From: Roseiflexaceae bacterium
GTDB lineage: Bacteria; Chloroflexota; Chloroflexia; Chloroflexales; Roseiflexaceae
Assembly: GCA_035765855.1 (NCBI GenBank)
Contig: DASTWM010000095.1
Coordinates: 1-38,973, forward strand
Length of the DNA stretch: 38,973 nt
Direction of reading: 5' to 3'
Shown here: piece by piece, positions 5,454 to 37,231 of the stretch
Layout of the letters: each line of letters starts with the position of its first letter
How positions within the stretch are numbered: position 1 is the stretch's first letter
Translations under genes and position numbers: made by a program
The notes under the pieces: model-generated
What the model was told of the DNA's origin: nothing
The model's input: the letters and a program-made list of their open reading frames with translations, nothing else
Databases searched by the model: none

Positions 5454-5551
5454 GTGAGGCCGAGTCTGTGCAACCTTCCCAGTGTATGGGATCAGTCGTA
5501 CAGTGCATATATTCGGTGTAAATTTCAGGCAAAGATGCTAGGAGGAAAACA

Positions 5552-11506: not shown

Positions 11507-11851
11507 ATGCTGCGTATGCGCCGGATGTTCGCCATTATGCTGCTTACAAGCCTCATGGTGCTGGTTCTCGGCTGTGGCGGCATGGCGGCCGCTCTGCACC
11601 AGGGCTTGCTCATGCCCCTCGCATTCGATGCCCGCGTTGGCCCGCTGCACATCGTGACGCACGCGCCGCGCGCAATTCAATGCCCGCAAAGCACCAATTG
11701 GTCAGCCAGAGAATGCGCGCATTATCAGGCTGATTTCACAGCAGCGCCGCGCAACTACCGCGTGTGGGTGTTTGTCAATCAGCAGCAGCACGGCCAACCT
11801 GCCGCGCGCCTGCTCATGCAGCTACAGTTGCCGCTCCGCGCGTCCTCATAG
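11507..11851 (+). CDS. Hypothetical small lipoprotein (uncertain)
   Basis: It has a signal-peptide-like N-terminus MLRMRRMFAIMLLTSLMVLVLGC with an LGC lipobox. The mature part is Cys/His-rich. GC3 is typical only downstream of ~11500. There is no clear Shine-Dalgarno. Its stop abuts the stop of the convergent ATPase gene. Confidence 0.3.
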   Translation: MLRMRRMFAIMLLTSLMVLVLGCGGMAAALHQGLLMPLAFDARVGPLHIVTHAPRAIQCPQSTNWSARECAHYQADFTAAPRNYRVWVFVNQQQHGQPAARLLMQLQLPLRASS

Positions 11852-23885: not shown

Positions 23886-25103
23886 TCACGCCTTACCTTC
23901 GTTTAATTCAGGCTGGATCACTGGCAAAATCACATGCCAATGCAGCGCGCCAAGCCCGGCCACGCCAATCAGCGCCAGCACAACGAACAGTATGTTATAG
24001 CCCAGCAAAGATGCCAGACCCCCGGCCAGCAGTGGCCCGGCAATCGCCGCCGGGGCCAGCGCCGTGTTGGACACGCCGATGTACGTCGGGCGCTCTTGCG
24101 GGCCGCTGAAGGCAAACGCCAGCGTGAACGCGGAAATCTGGTAGCCCGCCTGCGATGCGCCGATTAGCACAAAAATCAGCATGAACCAGGCCGGGGTGGG
24201 AGCAATGACTGCCAGCAGCATCGCCAGCAACCCCAGGGCAGTCGAAAGCTCCAGCACCTGCTTATGCCCCCAGCGGTCGGCCAGCGCGCCGAAGCCAAGG
24301 TTCGCAACCGCCTGCGCGCCGAGCAACACCACCGTGAACACGCCGATTTGCTCGTTCGGCAGCCGGAAGCGCCCGAGCGCGGCGGCGGTGATGAAGCTGT
24401 GGCCGACCAGCGCAATCGCAATCGCCGTGCGGCTGAACAGGTAGCGCCGGAACGCGGTATCGCGGCGCAGCAGCGGAATAATGCCGCGCAAAAACATGTG
24501 CAGCGGCTCGCGCGGCGGGGCGGGCTGCGCAGGCTCGATGGTTAAGCCGAGGAACATGTACGACAGCATCACGCCCACGAAGCAGATCAGCGACAGAATG
24601 CCGACGCTTTGCGGGAATGGCTGCGTCGCCAGAATGGTCGTGGCAACCGCCGCGCCCACTACGCCCAGCAGGCCGCCGAGACCATTTTGCAGCCCGAAGA
24701 AAATGCCCCAGCGCCGCTGAGGAATGACACGGCCAATAAAATCCTGCCATGCGGTCGAGGTGAAACCGGCGCTGAACGCGAAGATCGCGTACATGGAGAA
24801 AAAGGTCAGCAGCAGCGCCCAGACAGGCCATGTCGGCCACCATAGCAACACCAGGCCCAGAATCAGGAATGGAAACCGCTCGCCTGTCGTCGCGATCATG
24901 ATCCACGGCTTGCGGCGCGGCAGGCTGGCTATGACCGGCGCGATAAACAGGCCCGGCAGCAGCCAGCCAACATAGAACAGCATCGGGATAAGCCCCTGAA
25001 GCCAGGGCTGCGGCGACAGGCGCTCGACGAACAACGGCAACACGGTATAGCGCGAGAGCACGCTCATCCCCAGGACGAACATGGTGCCGTCGAGTACGTT
25101 CAT
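23886..25103 (-). CDS. MFS transporter
   Basis: It has ~12 predicted transmembrane segments with the MFS loop pattern. I chose the start at MNVLDGTMF, which is uncertain. The ORF extends to 25277. Confidence 0.75.
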   Translation of the reverse strand: MNVLDGTMFVLGMSVLSRYTVLPLFVERLSPQPWLQGLIPMLFYVGWLLPGLFIAPVIASLPRRKPWIMIATTGERFPFLILGLVLLWWPTWPVWALLLTFFSMYAIFAFSAGFTSTAWQDFIGRVIPQRRWGIFFGLQNGLGGLLGVVGAAVATTILATQPFPQSVGILSLICFVGVMLSYMFLGLTIEPAQPAPPREPLHMFLRGIIPLLRRDTAFRRYLFSRTAIAIALVGHSFITAAALGRFRLPNEQIGVFTVVLLGAQAVANLGFGALADRWGHKQVLELSTALGLLAMLLAVIAPTPAWFMLIFVLIGASQAGYQISAFTLAFAFSGPQERPTYIGVSNTALAPAAIAGPLLAGGLASLLGYNILFVVLALIGVAGLGALHWHVILPVIQPELNEGKA

Positions 25104-25422
25104 CCAAAAATTGCGCCTGGCATGCCGCGCAATGATAATCTCAGCTTGTTGTACACTCACACACTGCTCCGACGTATGAAATAACGAGAATATCTCAGGA
25201 GCAGCATGGTACCACGTCTTGCGAAAGACAGATTCGGGCGTAACGCGCCACTCGCTTGCGTGGAAACATCTGCGCACGACAGCTGATGAACATTTCCTAC
25301 GTTATCTGGTATTCCGTAGCCGACGCCCACGAGGGACGTCGCTACATGTACGCACCCGCATCATTCCTCATTGTTCACCAAACCATGGGTACATGCTCAC
25401 GCATAACGCTTTTATGTCAATG

Positions 25423-26490
25423 TTAGCTCGCATGTTGCTTGCCTTGCACACCAAACCGAAAGATCGTGGTCTGCTGGTACGTTTCGCCAGGGCGCAACAC
25501 CGTGGACGGGAACTGCGGCTGGTTGGGCGAGTCAGGAAAGTGCTCGGTTTCCAAGCAGAAGCCGGTGCGCCGGGCGTATACTTCGCCGTTCTTACCCGTC
25601 AGGCTGCCGTTCAGCATGTTGCCGGAGTAAAATTGCACGCCCGGCTCGGTGGTGAACACATCCAGCGTGCGCCCGCTCGCCGGATCATAGACATGCGCCG
25701 CATGGCCGAGCGCGCCCGGCTGTTTGTCCAGCACCCAGCAGTGGTCGTAGCCCTGGCCGTTGCGCAACTGCTCATTATCTTCATTAATGCGCGCGCCAAT
25801 TGGCGTCGGCGTGCGGAAGTCCATCGGCGTGCCTTCAACCGAACGAATCTCGCCGGTCGGAATCAGATTGTCGTTGATCGGAATGAAGCGCGAGGCGAAA
25901 AGCTGCATTTCATGCTCAAGAATATCGCCGCCGCCCGCCAGATTAAAGTACGAGTGATTCGTCAGGTTAATCACCGTGTCCTGATCAGTCGTCGCTGTAT
26001 AGTCAATCCGCAACTCGTTCCGGTCGGTCAGCGTGTACACGACCGTGACGGAAAGATTGCCGGGATAGCCTTCCTCGCCATCGGGACTTATAATCGAAAG
26101 TTCAAGGCTTGGTTCGGCGGCGTCGTGCGGCTGCGCGGCCCAGACCTTCTGATGGAAGCCGCCCGGCCCGCCATGAAGCTGATTCTTGCCGTCATTCTGC
26201 GCCAGTTTGTAGGTTTTACCGTCAAGTTCAAACCGCCCATTTGCGATGCGGTTGCCGTAGCGACCAACCAGCGCGCCGAAGAAAGGATTTTTGTCCAAGT
26301 AGGGTGCTAAGGTATCAAAACCCAGCGCCACATCGCCCAGTTGGCCGTTGCGATCCGGCACGCGCAGCGCGATGATGATCCCGCCGAAGGTCATGATGTC
26401 GGCTTCCACGCCATGCGCATTTGTGAGCGTGTAGCGTTCAATCGTCGTGCCGTCGGATGTCGTTCCGAAATTATGTCGTGTAATGGGCAT
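25423..26490 (-). CDS. galM: Aldose 1-epimerase (galactose mutarotase)
   Basis: Aldose-1-epimerase motifs are present: GGIIIALRVPDRNG, GRYGNRIANGRFELDGKTYKLAQNDGKNQLHGG and HSYFNL. Confidence 0.9.
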   Translation of the reverse strand: MPITRHNFGTTSDGTTIERYTLTNAHGVEADIMTFGGIIIALRVPDRNGQLGDVALGFDTLAPYLDKNPFFGALVGRYGNRIANGRFELDGKTYKLAQNDGKNQLHGGPGGFHQKVWAAQPHDAAEPSLELSIISPDGEEGYPGNLSVTVVYTLTDRNELRIDYTATTDQDTVINLTNHSYFNLAGGGDILEHEMQLFASRFIPINDNLIPTGEIRSVEGTPMDFRTPTPIGARINEDNEQLRNGQGYDHCWVLDKQPGALGHAAHVYDPASGRTLDVFTTEPGVQFYSGNMLNGSLTGKNGEVYARRTGFCLETEHFPDSPNQPQFPSTVLRPGETYQQTTIFRFGVQGKQHAS

Positions 26491-26535: not shown

Positions 26536-26598
26536 CCCTCACCCTGGCGCTGCCACGCCACCCCTCTCCCCATCTGGGAGAGGGGCCGGGGGTGAGGG
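26536..26598. repeat. Structured G/C-rich palindromic repeat, copy A. A nested hairpin CCCCTCTCC-ccatct-GGGAGAGGGG is enclosed by CCCTCACCC...GGGTGAGGG.
   Basis: Seen directly in the sequence. It lies 39 nt downstream of the araA stop. Copy B at 28166-28225 is near-identical but inverted. Confidence 0.6.
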
Positions 26599-26636
26599 AG
26601 AAAGATTGCCAAGCTCATGCGCTCGGTCTTCGCGTG

Positions 26637-28142
26637 CTACAATCCTTTCGCGAGATGGTAGTACAGGTCGTTCCAGCGCAGTTCTTTCTTGAAATTCGAC
26701 ACCGTAGTGCTCTTGTCGATCAGCAGGAACTCCATGCCGGCCATGTCGGCAAAATCTTCCAGATGCTCGGCGGTGAGATCGTAGCTGAAGCCAGTGTGGT
26801 GCGCTCCACCCGCGTAAATCCATGCCGCCGCGGCCGTCTTCAAATCAGGTTGCGGCACCCACAGCACGCGCGCGACCGGCAGCCTGGGCAGCGGCTCGTC
26901 GGCAGGCACCGCATCGACGGCGTTGACGACCATGCGCAGGCGGTTGCCCATCTCGACAATCGAGGCGCAGACTGCCGGGCCGGTCTTCGAGTCGAACACC
27001 AGCCGCACCGGGTCGGCCTTGCCGCCGATGCCGAGCGGATGCACCTCAAGTTTGGGCTTGCCGTCGGCAATCGTCGGGCAGACTTCGAGCATGTGCGCGC
27101 CGAGCACCTTCATGCCATTCTGGTTGAGGTGATAGGTGTAGTCCTCCATGAAGGACGTACCCTTCGGCAGACCGGTGGCCATGACCTTCATCGCCCGCAC
27201 CAGCGCGGCGGTCTTCCAGTCGCCCTCGCCCGCAAAGCCGTAGCCTTCGGCCATGAGGCGCTGCGGGCCGAGGCCCGGCAGTTGCGTCAGGCCATGCAGA
27301 TCCTCAAAGGTCGTGGTGAAGCCCTTGAAGTTACCGTCCTGCAGGAAGCGGCGGATTCCAATCTCGATCCGCGCGCCATCGCGCAGCGACTGGTGGCGCG
27401 CGCCGCCGGGCCGCAATTCCGGCGCAACGTCGTACTGGTCGCCGTACTCCTCGATGATACTATCAATATCAGCGTCGGAAACCTCGTTCACAACGCGCAC
27501 CAGATCGCCCACGCCGTAGCCGTTGACACTGTAGCCGAGCCGCATCTGCGCGTTGACCTTGTCGCCCTCGGTGACGGCCACCTCGCGCATGTTGTCGCCG
27601 AAGCGGCAGAACCGAGCGCCCTGCGCGTCGGCCCAGGCGCATGCCGCGCGCGTCCACGCGCCCAGGCTGGCCTGTACGTCCTTGTCCTGCCAGTGGCCGA
27701 CGACGACTTTACGCTCCAGCCGCATGCGGCTGCCGATAAAGCCGAACTCGCGGTCGCCGTGCGCCGACTGATTCAGGTTCATGAAATCCATGTCGATGTC
27801 GGCCCACGGGATGTCGCGGTTGAACTGGGTGTGCAGGTGCGCGAAGGGCTTCTGCAGCACGCGCAGCCCGGCGATCCACATCTTGGCGGGCGAGAAGGTG
27901 TGCATCCATGTAACCAGGCCGATGCAGCTCTGCGCCGCGTTGGCCTCCAGCGCAAGCTGATAGATTTCGTCGGGCGTCTTCACCACTGGCTTGAACACGA
28001 CCTTGACCGGAATGCTGGCGGATTCATCGAGCCCCTGCGTGATGGCGCGCGAATGCTCGGCCACTTGCTCCAGCGTTTCGGGGCCGTACAAATGCTGGCT
28101 GCCGGTCACGAACCAGACCTCGTATTGTGAAAGATCGATCAT
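26637..28142 (-). CDS. araA: L-arabinose isomerase
   Basis: The N-terminus [24 protein letters not shown] is diagnostic. The ~501-aa length and an AGGAG Shine-Dalgarno 8 nt upstream support the call. Confidence 0.95.
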
Positions 28143-28165
28143 TATGCATGCTCCTGAGTGAATGA

Positions 28166-28225
28166 CCCTCACCCCCGGCCCCTCTCCCGATGGGAGAGGG
28201 ATGGCGCGGCAGCGCCGGGGTGAGG
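28166..28225. repeat. Structured G/C-rich palindromic repeat, copy B. It is inverted relative to copy A and lies in the araD-araA spacer immediately upstream of the araA Shine-Dalgarno.
   Basis: The sequence CCCTCACCCCCGGCCCCTCTCCCgatGGGAGAGGGatggcgcggcagcGCCGGGGTGAGG is the reverse complement of copy A with a few substitutions. Confidence 0.6.
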
Positions 28226-28256: not shown

Positions 28257-28898
28257 CTACTGCCCGTACACATTCACGTAGCGGTCATGCAATTTGGCCA
28301 CATCCTCGGGCGCGATCTCGTCGGGCGTGCCGAGTTGCAGCGCATACCAGACCGTGCGCGCGACATCTTCGACCATCACAGCGGCCTTCACGGCAGCCTT
28401 GGCCGACTTGCCGATCGTGAACACGCCATGGTTCTTCAGCAGCACCGCCGGTGAGTCGCCGATGTGCTCGACCACCTGCTGGCCGATCTCCTCGCCGCCG
28501 ATCAGCGCGAAGCCCGCGCATGGGATCGGGCAGCCAAATTCGTCGGCAATCGCGGTGAGGTACACCGGAATGGGCTTGCCTACTGCGGCGAACGCGGTGG
28601 CATACGGCGAGTGGGTGTGGACAACGCCGTTGACATCGGGGCGGTGGCGGTAGATATACAGGTGGCTGGCGGTGTCCGACGACGGCTTGAGCGTGCCTTC
28701 AACCACGTTGCCGTCCAGGTCAAGCACCACATGATCTTCGGGGCGCAGGTCTTCGTACATCACGCCGCTGGGCTTGATCGCCACCAGCCCGCTCTCCGGG
28801 TCGCGCGCGCTGACGTTGCCGCCCGTCCATGTGACCAGGCCATTCTTGGGTAATTCCAGGTGCAGCTTCCAGAGCTGTTCTTTGAGTTGTTCGAGCAT
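28257..28898 (-). CDS. araD: L-ribulose-5-phosphate 4-epimerase
   Basis: It is a class II aldolase/adducin-fold protein. The N-terminus MLEQLKEQLWKLHLELPKNGLVTWTGGNVSARD matches araD. A GAGGAAG Shine-Dalgarno lies upstream. Confidence 0.9.
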   Translation of the reverse strand: MLEQLKEQLWKLHLELPKNGLVTWTGGNVSARDPESGLVAIKPSGVMYEDLRPEDHVVLDLDGNVVEGTLKPSSDTASHLYIYRHRPDVNGVVHTHSPYATAFAAVGKPIPVYLTAIADEFGCPIPCAGFALIGGEEIGQQVVEHIGDSPAVLLKNHGVFTIGKSAKAAVKAAVMVEDVARTVWYALQLGTPDEIAPEDVAKLHDRYVNVYGQ

Positions 28899-28925: not shown

Positions 28926-30527
<1,602 letters not shown>

Positions 30528-30684: not shown

Positions 30685-31860
30685 TTAGCGCGCGCCAAGC
30701 AGCAGTTCGATCAGCAACTGATCAAGCTCCTCGTAGCGCCGCCCGCGCCCGGCCAGCGCCGCCGTGTCAAAGCTCTGGTCCTTCAACTGCCGGGCTTTGT
30801 CGGCGCTGTAGCCGCCGGATGCCGCCGGGCCATTGTATGCGCTGTCACCCTGCTGCAATTCCTTGATCACACTCTGAATCTCGGCGTCCTCATGGAAGCG
30901 CTTGACCTTGTCTTTCAAGATCAGGTAGGTGCGCATGCAGCCGCGCGCGAAAGCCCACACGCCATCCTCGTCCTCGGTGCGGTAGGCGTGCGCGTCGTAA
31001 TGCAGCGGGCCGTCGTAGCCGCTTTCTTCCAGCAGCCTCACCAGGAAGAAGGCGCGCTTGATATTCTCGGAGCCGAAGCGGAAGTCCTGATCGTAGCGCC
31101 CCATGACCTGATCGTTCAGGTCGATATGAAACAGCTTGCCCGCTTCGAGCGCCTGCGCTACGCCATGCACGAAATTCAGCCCGGCCATGGTCTCATGGGC
31201 GAATTCGGGATTGACGCCGACCATGTCGGGGTCGTCGAGCGTGGTGATGAAGTGCAGCGCATGGCCGACGGTCGGGAAGTACAGGTCGCCACGCGGTTCG
31301 TTCGGCTTGGGTTCCAGCGCGAACCGCATGCCGTAGCCCTGCTCCTTGACGTAGTCGCACAGATAGTTAATCGCCTCGCGGAACCACTTGATCGCGTCGC
31401 GGCCATCGCGGTACACATCTGTCTCCACGCCTTCGCGCCCGCCCCAGAAGACGTAGGTTTTCGCGCCCAGCTCCGCGCCCAGGTCAATCGAGCGCATGGT
31501 TTTTTGCAACGCGAATGCGCGCACGGCCGCGTCGGACGACGTGAACGCGCCATCTTTGAAGATTGGGTGCGTAAACAGATTCGTGGTCGCCATCGGCACG
31601 ACCATGTCATTGTCGGCCAGCGCCTTCTTGAAGCGCGCGACGATCTGATCGCGCTCTTGCGGCGTGGCGTCGAACGGCACCAGATCGTTGTCATGGAAAT
31701 TAATGCCCCACGCGCCCAATTCACTGAGTTTCTCTACACTGTGTACAGGATCGAGCGGCGGGCGCGTCGGATCGCCAAATGGATCGCGCCCGATGTTGCC
31801 AACCGTCCACAAACCAAAGCTAAAGTGATCACTCTTCTGCGGGGTAAAAGGATCAGCCAT
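30685..31860 (-). CDS. xylA: Xylose isomerase, class I (short, actinobacterial/Thermus type)
   Basis: The N-terminus [22 protein letters not shown] is diagnostic. Metal-site motifs FHDND, WGGREG and PKPNEP are present. The ~391-aa length is typical. An AAAGG Shine-Dalgarno lies upstream. Confidence 0.95.
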
Positions 31861-34022: not shown

Positions 34023-34077
34023 GCGATTCAATGAGCGTGTGCCTTTACCCAATGGATGCTCCACATGAAGCAATCCG

Positions 34078-34103
34078 CAGGGGCGCGGCATGCCGCGCCC
34101 CTG
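34078..34103 (-). terminator. Perfect 26-bp GC-rich palindrome CAGGGGCGCGGCA|TGCCGCGCCCCTG, 10 nt after the stop of GH51 gene 1
   Basis: Seen directly in the sequence. Moderate U content follows on the transcript. It is a candidate intrinsic terminator or RNA stabiliser. Confidence 0.5.
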
Positions 34104-34112
34104 CCGGAGCTG

Positions 34113-37160: not shown

Positions 37161-37231
37161 AAACCTGTCAGGTCAGCGCGCTGTGCTGCTGTATTCATCC
37201 GCATCTGGCGCGCTGCTGACCTGACAGGTTT
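37161..37231 (-). terminator. Long stem-loop with a 17-bp perfect stem AAACCTGTCAGGTCAGC, a further bulged GCGC pairing and a ~22-nt loop. It lies between GH51 paralogs 3 and 2.
   Basis: Seen directly in the sequence. No clean U-tract follows. It could be a terminator, an attenuator or a processing-site stabiliser. Confidence 0.45.

Follow-up and report, generated by a model that had tools for sequence, protein, structure and literature searches.

Two inverted copies of a probable BoxC/PIT/TM-ECO-type interspersed repeat flank araA in a Roseiflexaceae bacterium

The DNA considered here is a 38,973-nt stretch (the window) of a metagenome-assembled genome of Roseiflexaceae (Chloroflexota), a host known only from metagenome sequence, and the contig is also present in JGI metagenome 3300047677. 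In its ara operon, the L-arabinose isomerase gene araA is flanked by two G/C-rich palindromic units of ~60 nt in opposite orientations. We conclude, with a probability of about 0.8, that both units are copies of an interspersed repeat of the BoxC / PIT / TM-ECO / HPGQ kind, a short G/C-rich palindrome that is non-coding and here resides in operon spacers. The pair is an ordinary interspersed repeat in permissive, fast-evolving spacers and not the mobile araA cassette envisaged in an earlier note on this DNA.

Anatomy and family identity of the repeat units

Copy A (26536-26598) lies in the araA-galM spacer, 38 nt past the araA stop (39 nt in the earlier note), and its canonical orientation, from C-arm to G-arm, is on the plus strand, antisense to the operon. 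Copy B (28166-28225) lies in the araD-araA spacer, 31 nt past the araD stop, with its canonical orientation on the minus strand, sense to the operon. Its end is separated from the araA ATG by 23 nt, and the araA ribosome-binding site AGGAG (28151-28155, minus strand), 10 nt downstream of the copy B junction, stays free and is unpaired in the local fold, in agreement with the earlier placement of copy B just upstream of this site. An inverted-repeat search finds the two copies as paired arms of 34 nt (26537-26570/28192-28225, 91% identity) and of 23 nt (26576-26598/28166-28188, 100% identity). The two inverted units of ~60 nt reported on either side of araA are thus present, although B, described as the reverse complement of A, is a near and not an exact one, because global alignment gives 57 identical columns out of 63 and places two 1-nt indels around the inner loop.

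Each unit consists, in order, of the outer arm CCCTCACCC, the mini-hairpin GGCG-CTGCCR-CGCC, the inner hairpin CCCCTCTCCC-loop-GGGAGAGGGG, CC and the outer arm GGGGGTGAGGG. On the plus strand of copy A, the outer 5' arm CCCTCACCC (26536-26544) pairs with 26590-26598, the mini-hairpin TGGCG-CTGCCA-CGCCA (26545-26560) is predicted by folding to form the third branch of a junction, the inner hairpin CCCCTCTCCC-CATCT-GGGAGAGGGG spans 26561-26585, and the G-rich 23-mer GGGAGAGGGGCCGGGGGTGAGGG (26576-26598) is formally a G-quadruplex (G4) motif as well as the purine "triplex" arm. The predicted mini-hairpin of copy B, GGCG-CTGCCG-CGCC, is at 28203-28216 on the minus strand. The outer stem and the inner hairpin of the "nested hairpin" described earlier are both there, but a further small hairpin, which follows the outer 5' arm and precedes the inner hairpin, makes each unit a three-way junction. 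A search of the window for the inner hairpin CCCTCTCCC-N-GGGAGAGGG gives exactly two hits, as does a search for the 23-mer with up to 3 mismatches allowed, while shuffles give 0 for either. No further diverged copies were found in the window by nhmmer with a profile built from family members, which was used in place of a covariance model because the MAFFT register across the loops was structurally inconsistent. Confirmed coding regions adjoin both copies on either side, so the copies are intergenic in the sense applied to BoxC/PIT/TM-ECO.

The core of the window units, CCCTCTCCC-loop-GGGAGAGGG-CC(G)-GGGTGAGGG, equals TM-ECO type B of Escherichia coli, CCCTCTCCCTGTGGGAGAGGGCCGGGGTGAGGGC (Holder et al., 2015, Table 1; PMC4666352), and HPG2, dGGGAGAGGGCCGGGGTGAGGG (Kaplan et al., 2016; PMC5100583), except that every tract in the window units is one G or C longer. 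The TM-ECO element had earlier been named BoxC and PIT (PMC4666352). Common to BoxC, PIT, TM-ECO, HPG2 and the window units are the succession of C-tract, loop, GGGAGAGGG, CC(G) and GGGTGAGGG; a second G-tract that mirrors the first with T replacing A (GGGAGAGGGG and the reversed GGGGTGAGGG are mirror images save for A to T, like E. coli type B); T:A or fixed G.A variants at the stem center; and an intergenic location, in some cases inside operons, as single elements or as composites with an outer stem. With 9-nt stems, the window copies have a second loop of 5 nt (GCCGG), which is equivalent to 10-nt stems with the loop CC or CCG. Both copies match a TM pattern with relaxed loops and fall within the ITxF definition (C-tract, loop, G-tract, loop and mirror G-tract, with stems of 6-15 nt, loops of 1-6 nt and one mismatch allowed). 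What sets the window units apart is that their tracts are 10-11 nt long instead of 9 and that they add the outer 5' arm and the GGCG/CGCC mini-hairpin, which give the three-way junction. While TM-ECO has been catalogued in Proteobacteria (3,610 copies in 262 proteobacterial genomes; PMC4666352), the window host belongs to Chloroflexota, and the window units are a structural variant, with 10-nt tracts, outer arm and mini-hairpin, from a phylum without previously catalogued family members.

Partial matches to the unit were found in 784 of 5,426 E. coli genomes. The one E. coli copy inspected, between wcaJ and cpsG, is a nested palindrome, CCTCACCCC-AG-CCCTCTCCCC-ACC-GGGGAGAGGG-CT-GGGGTGAGG, and has the outer-arm and inner-hairpin layout of the window units without the mini-hairpin. 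TM-ECO elements are always intergenic and show no gene-class bias; in E. coli they have neither promoter nor terminator activity, and their loci show raised local variability among strains (PMC4666352). No literature on functional follow-up of BoxC/TM-ECO was found.

The earlier suggestion of a REP/MITE-like interspersed element holds at the level of the family, given the published core and the occurrence of the exact 23-mer in at least 120 genome stretches and of the mini-hairpin sub-type in at least 120 metagenome stretches, but the units are neither REP nor MITE proper. Repetitive extragenic palindromic (REP) elements and bacterial interspersed mosaic elements (BIME), which are able to act as mRNA decay barriers, are likewise short G/C-rich intergenic palindromes that are often intercistronic and occur in either orientation. 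The window units are not REPs in the strict sense, because they start with CCCTCACCC and lack the GTAG/GGAG head, and because a Y1 (RAYT) transposase is absent among the window genes scanned or annotated; moreover, REPs are species-specific, whereas the window 23-mer is common to several phyla. With bacterial miniature inverted-repeat transposable elements (MITEs), such as ERIC/IRU, Correia/NEMIS, RUP and BOX, the units share being small non-autonomous repeats that lie between co-transcribed genes and fold in mRNA. They are not classical MITEs, because they have no target-site duplication (no direct repeat of at least 3 nt abuts either unit); in addition, they have no terminal inverted repeats matching known insertion sequences and, at ~60 nt, are far shorter than typical MITEs. 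The stable branched fold is reminiscent of Rfam structured-RNA families, but neither unit matches an Rfam family at the gathering threshold. The best permissive Rfam match, RAGATH-10, scored 22.3 bits against a cut-off of 41.2 bits, and its E-value of 0.28 is at the level of chance.

Distribution in genomes, metagenomes and viral contigs

The exact 23-mer GGGAGAGGGGCCGGGGGTGAGGG is present in at least 120 genome stretches from ~8 phyla, compared with an estimated chance expectation of ~0.02; the scan covered 596 Gb with one genome per species, and the count is a lower bound. The phyla among the matches listed are Chloroflexota, Planctomycetota, Acidobacteriota, Armatimonadota, Gemmatimonadota, Verrucomicrobiota, Melainabacteria and Proteobacteria. 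The record titles of these listed matches name Anaerolineae, Thermomicrobiales, Dehalococcoidia, Chloroflexus and Sphaerobacter, Thermoanaerobaculia, Terriglobia and Holophagales for the Acidobacteriota, and further Akkermansiaceae, Gastranaerophilales, Desulfobulbaceae and alpha-, beta- and gamma-Proteobacteria.

In the loci fetched for comparison (L007-L311, with L127-L246 from metagenomes and L250, L281 and L292 from IMG/VR; L002-L006 and L313 denote the araA relatives described below), the complementary C-tract hairpin is nearly always found upstream of the 23-mer, and the architecture farther upstream is variable. The copies include the bare TM core, simple nested palindromes (L009, L095, L108), long palindromes (L027, L083) and forms in which, like the E. 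coli pairs, an outer stem encloses two large hairpins (L081, L110, L114). Three-way junctions can also include an unrelated small hairpin (GCCC-TTCT-GGGC in L012, GCC-TTC-GGC in L111 and CCCG-GTACG-CGGG in L184), and the full three-way-junction layout is found again in L139, L172, L178, L184, L187, L201 and L234. In L038 and L108, copies of the TM unit follow one another head to tail in tandem arrays (period ~45-48 nt) instead of being dispersed singly.

The sub-type of the window, with outer arm CCTCACC, mini-hairpin GGCGCTGC and inner stem CCCTCTCCC, occurs in at least 120 metagenome stretches. Among the matches listed, the dominant metagenome module is CCTCACCC-GGCGC-TGC-GCGCC-A-CCCTCTCCC, and the longer-loop variant of the window, GGCGCTGCCGCGCC, is seen again in L161, L166, L199 and L206. 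No paper containing the mini-hairpin module was found, and this extra conserved module is new relative to the searchable literature. Among the listed soil-metagenome matches (L127-L246), a 31-mer module, CCTCACCCGGCGCTGCGCGCCACCCTCTCCC, recurs extremely often with hardly any variation, and no paper containing it was found; in some metagenome copies (e.g., L229) a mini-hairpin on both sides gives a four-way junction.

At the center of the inner stem, ~360 hairpins from all fetched loci have T:A in ~72% and a fixed G.A mismatch in ~26%, while a compensated G:C was found in 0 of the ~360. Because the stem center is never compensated to G:C in these loci, the family is conserved as sequence variants and not only as a fold. 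The fixed G.A in the fetched loci also means that conservation across phyla extends to the "mm" variant known from E. coli. Copies lie inside open frames of at least 150 codons in 74% of cases, compared with 94% for random positions, in GC-rich loci where such frames abound.

The 23-mer was also found in 65 viral-contig stretches of IMG/VR. Curated phage genomes have no match to the unit, and among plasmids partial unit matches occur in 15 only, all of them large and non-mobilizable. The multi-copy viral contigs L250, L281 and L292 carry their copies mostly on one strand (e.g., 4 of 4 or 3 of 3), and UViG_3300020048_000734 has 6 copies of the 23-mer in 20 kb. Such a strand preference may stem from coding use of the repeat or from a preferred orientation with respect to transcription.

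Predicted structures of the units

The RNA minimum free energy (MFE) of the units is -47 to -51 kcal/mol (z ~ -4.5), with 0 of 200 shuffles as good; both strands of each unit fold equally well, and the three-way junction is kept when entire spacers are folded. The canonical G4 pattern (G3+ N1-7 G3+ N1-7 G3+ N1-7 G3+) matches once per copy, at 26576-26598 on the plus strand and 28166-28188 on the minus strand, so the G4 motif noticed earlier on the G-rich strand is borne out by the pattern scan. Elsewhere in the window, no canonical G4 motif occurs on either strand, while block shuffles average 3.5, which indicates that G4 motifs are otherwise depleted.

That the only two canonical G4 motifs of the window are in the units would fit a non-B DNA or RNA switch, in which the G-rich arm as a G4 or a purine-motif intrastrand triplex regulates transcription or replication or causes instability. 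Isolated TM-ECO and HPG oligonucleotides give triplex, G4 or hairpin in vitro (PMC4666352, PMC5100583), TM-ECO loci are more variable among E. coli strains (PMC4666352), and the spacers next to araA turn over fast. Even so, we consider such a switch very unlikely. The G4-aware MFE retains the junction at -47 to -51 kcal/mol, compared with -9.6 kcal/mol for the free 23-mer. Because the G-rich arm, the would-be third strand, has a Watson-Crick partner in cis, the outer C-arm, the three-way junction and not a G4 or an intrastrand triplex is the structure expected from folding models for single strands of full-length copies. Furthermore, in vivo dimethyl sulfate (DMS) footprinting in E. coli gave the triplex no support, and purine-motif triplexes do not form as RNA according to Holder et al. 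(PMC4666352).

Strong G/C-rich stems after stop codons are also what would be seen if the units were terminators or attenuators without a U-tail that separate araD, araA and galM. This is highly improbable, as no T-run follows either unit and a scan finds no promoter-like or terminator-like site coinciding with them. Terminator-like sites are fewer than expected from shuffles, and the lone weak one (26626-26609) is located upstream of copy A. The units also occur in both orientations, and PIT elements are inactive as terminators in E. coli (PMC4666352).

Orthologous araA loci

The relatives compared share 87-96% araA identity with the window. L002 (araA 96%), a 506-kb contig with kinase-araD-araA order, has one diverged copy of the repeat in the araA-galM spacer. 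No family repeat is present in L003 and L004 (araA 96%; araD-araA order), in L005 and L006 (araA 95%; araD-araA order in L005, while L006 begins at araA) or in the Roseiflexaceae locus L313 (araA 87%), where a compact arrangement leaves 16 nt between araD and araA and 4 nt between araA and the next gene. For L003-L006, both regex and profile searches found no family members. In all of L002-L006, araA is followed by galM, in L003 and L004 with an extra gene in between; this gene encodes 458 amino acids in L003 and is an Fe-ADH_2 gene in L004. More distant relatives have other gene arrangements.

These loci bear directly on the proposal that the inverted pair moves or inverts araA and so explains the kinase-araD-araA order. 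Two inverted copies, 90% identical, do bracket exactly one gene. However, the comparison of araA flanks shows that the order is unchanged in relatives without the pair, and the earlier note had itself made unchanged order at loci lacking the repeats the test of this idea; by that yardstick, the cassette is refuted, and we find it extremely unlikely. Inverted repeats invert the DNA between them and do not excise it, inversion would leave araA antisense within its operon, the longest perfect identity between the copies is just 23 nt, and no inverted or relocated araA is seen among the relatives examined. The araB-D-A order is, moreover, common in Actinobacteria-type ara clusters.

The spacers next to araA turn over rapidly, and other lineages hold other palindromes there. 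Even at 95-96% araA identity the spacers are unalignable, with the left flank in L002 as the sole exception. L003 has a CACAGAG/CTCTGTG palindrome family in two operon spacers (~2458-2535 and 5484-5550), which is also present in L004, and in L005 (2887-2914) and L006 (1686-1713) the araA-galM spacer holds a perfect palindrome of 28 bp, GCAGGGGCGCGGCATGCCGCGCCCCTGC. The identical 28-bp palindrome, GCAGGGGCGCGGCA|TGCCGCGCCCCTGC, recurs at 34077-34104 of the window, where it lies in a different spacer of the arabinan cluster, 8 nt past the stop of an arabinofuranosidase gene, and it represents a second interspersed family. The araD-araA spacer of L002 has a hairpin of ~85 nt.

The L002 copy (11573-11633) is a diverged three-way-junction unit that is ~75% identical to copies A and B and occupies the site of copy A. 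It shares the left flank of copy A (GAGCGCAT, TTGGC, AATCTTTCT), its asymmetric interior is flipped, and its inner stem is preserved through a two-sided T:A to G:C change. Because its ~75% identity matches the ~77% third-codon-position identity between the window and L002, it could be a neutrally drifting orthologue, while the window copy is still consensus-perfect. The flipped interior may have come about either by in-place inversion between the outer arms or by independent re-insertion.

Possible roles in the ara operon

A role of the predicted structures as intercistronic RNA elements is plausible. Selected elements of this kind would tune the ara operon by protecting the araD or araA segments from 3'-5' decay or by setting araA/galM ratios, and REP elements act in this way in malEFG. 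Several features speak for selection: the predicted folds are very stable in both orientations and spare the ribosome-binding site, the copies are placed 31-38 nt past a stop codon, strong hairpins with z of -2 to -4.5 occupy the same positions in all relatives with expanded spacers, and the L002 inner stem was kept by a change on both sides. On the other hand, the L313 operon has hairpin-free spacers of 16 and 4 nt, the repeat is pan-bacterial instead of ara-specific, and PIT/TM-ECO elements lack promoter activity, terminator activity and a link to gene class in E. coli (PMC4666352). We hold selection of the units for such a role to be a real but minor possibility; the compact L313 operon, together with the negative results in E. 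coli, argues that the units are dispensable.

Based on the interspersed-repeat reading, we propose that the spreading mechanism of the family has recently brought in or renewed the copies and that they would be tolerated because the spacers adjoining araA are permissive. When transcribed within the polycistronic mRNA, either orientation would fold as the junction, with the araA ribosome-binding site free. Any effect on the mRNA would most likely be REP-like, in that the units would shield the mRNA segment upstream of them from exonucleolytic decay, and would probably be dispensable for operon function.

Several points weigh against this reading. In the host, copies can be counted only within the window, where there are two and both are at one gene, an arrangement with an estimated chance of ~6% if copies were placed randomly among ~33 gaps. 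The strict TM-ECO pattern, CCCTCNCCC N3-6 GGGNGAGGG N3 GGGNGAGGG, has 0 matches in the window, as every tract carries one extra base. A mobilizing enzyme, a target-site duplication and an empty/filled allele pair were not found, so that spreading is read from the distribution only. Finally, spacer folds give a stable hairpin (z of -2 to -4.5) in the expanded spacer of every relative, which could point to selection for a hairpin at these sites and not just to its tolerance.

Wider implications

At the level of the locus the meaning of the repeats is small, as they leave the gene order unexplained and are dispensable in relatives, and the units are best masked or annotated as interspersed repeats and not as ara-specific regulators. 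The by-products of the comparison that deserve attention are the letter-perfect modules shared across phyla, the mini-hairpin module, the flipped orthologous copy and the colonization of spacers by different families. The E. coli repeat has been known for 30 years without a function or a spreading mechanism, and identical 23-mers are now found in soil and water bacteria of many phyla. As the same operon spacers hold different palindrome families in sister lineages, they also offer a comparative system for asking whether hairpins are selected or tolerated.

A broader reading, which we offer tentatively and regard as unlikely, is that the units belong to an under-described, modular and pan-bacterial repeat system. 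On this reading, three blocks, CCCTCACCC/GGGTGAGGG, CCCTCTCCC/GGGAGAGGG and the GGCGC-TGC-GCGCC mini-hairpin, are kept letter for letter in at least eight phyla and are assembled as hairpins, three-way junctions and four-way junctions. Exact identity of non-coding 23- to 31-mers across phyla would, in such a system, imply a trans-acting partner, which might be a mobilizer or a universally conserved host factor that reads branched DNA or RNA. If so, the flip between the window and L002 would be a trace of that machinery or of cruciform-templated repair, and the mini-hairpin and outer-arm variants would argue that it is the junction that is conserved and not the triplex or G4 from which the elements take their names.

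Genes of the window

Genes were called with NCBIfam models and compared with the Pfam annotation of the same contig. The genes adjoining the repeats, from xylA to an MFS transporter gene, are all on the minus strand. In the direction of transcription, they are xylA (30685-31860; gene calls and Pfam annotation), an FGGY-family sugar kinase gene (28926-30527; NCBIfam and Pfam), araD for L-ribulose-5-phosphate 4-epimerase (28257-28898; NCBIfam), araA (26637-28142; NF002795, 841 bits), galM for aldose 1-epimerase (25423-26490; NCBIfam) and the MFS transporter gene (23886-25277; gene calls and Pfam annotation). The gene calls confirm the identities given earlier for araA, araD and galM. The gene previously called araB is an FGGY kinase gene upstream of araD, and its product reaches no NCBIfam cut-off for ribulokinase or xylulokinase; the xylulokinase model (E = 5e-35) fits it better than the ribulokinase models (E = 6e-12), with all curated cut-offs missed. 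The longest local hairpin of the window, at 37161-37231 between two arabinofuranosidase genes, has perfectly matched 17-nt arms, AAACCTGTCAGGTCAGC/GCTGACCTGACAGGTTT, separated by 37 nt, and bears no relation to the BoxC-type units.

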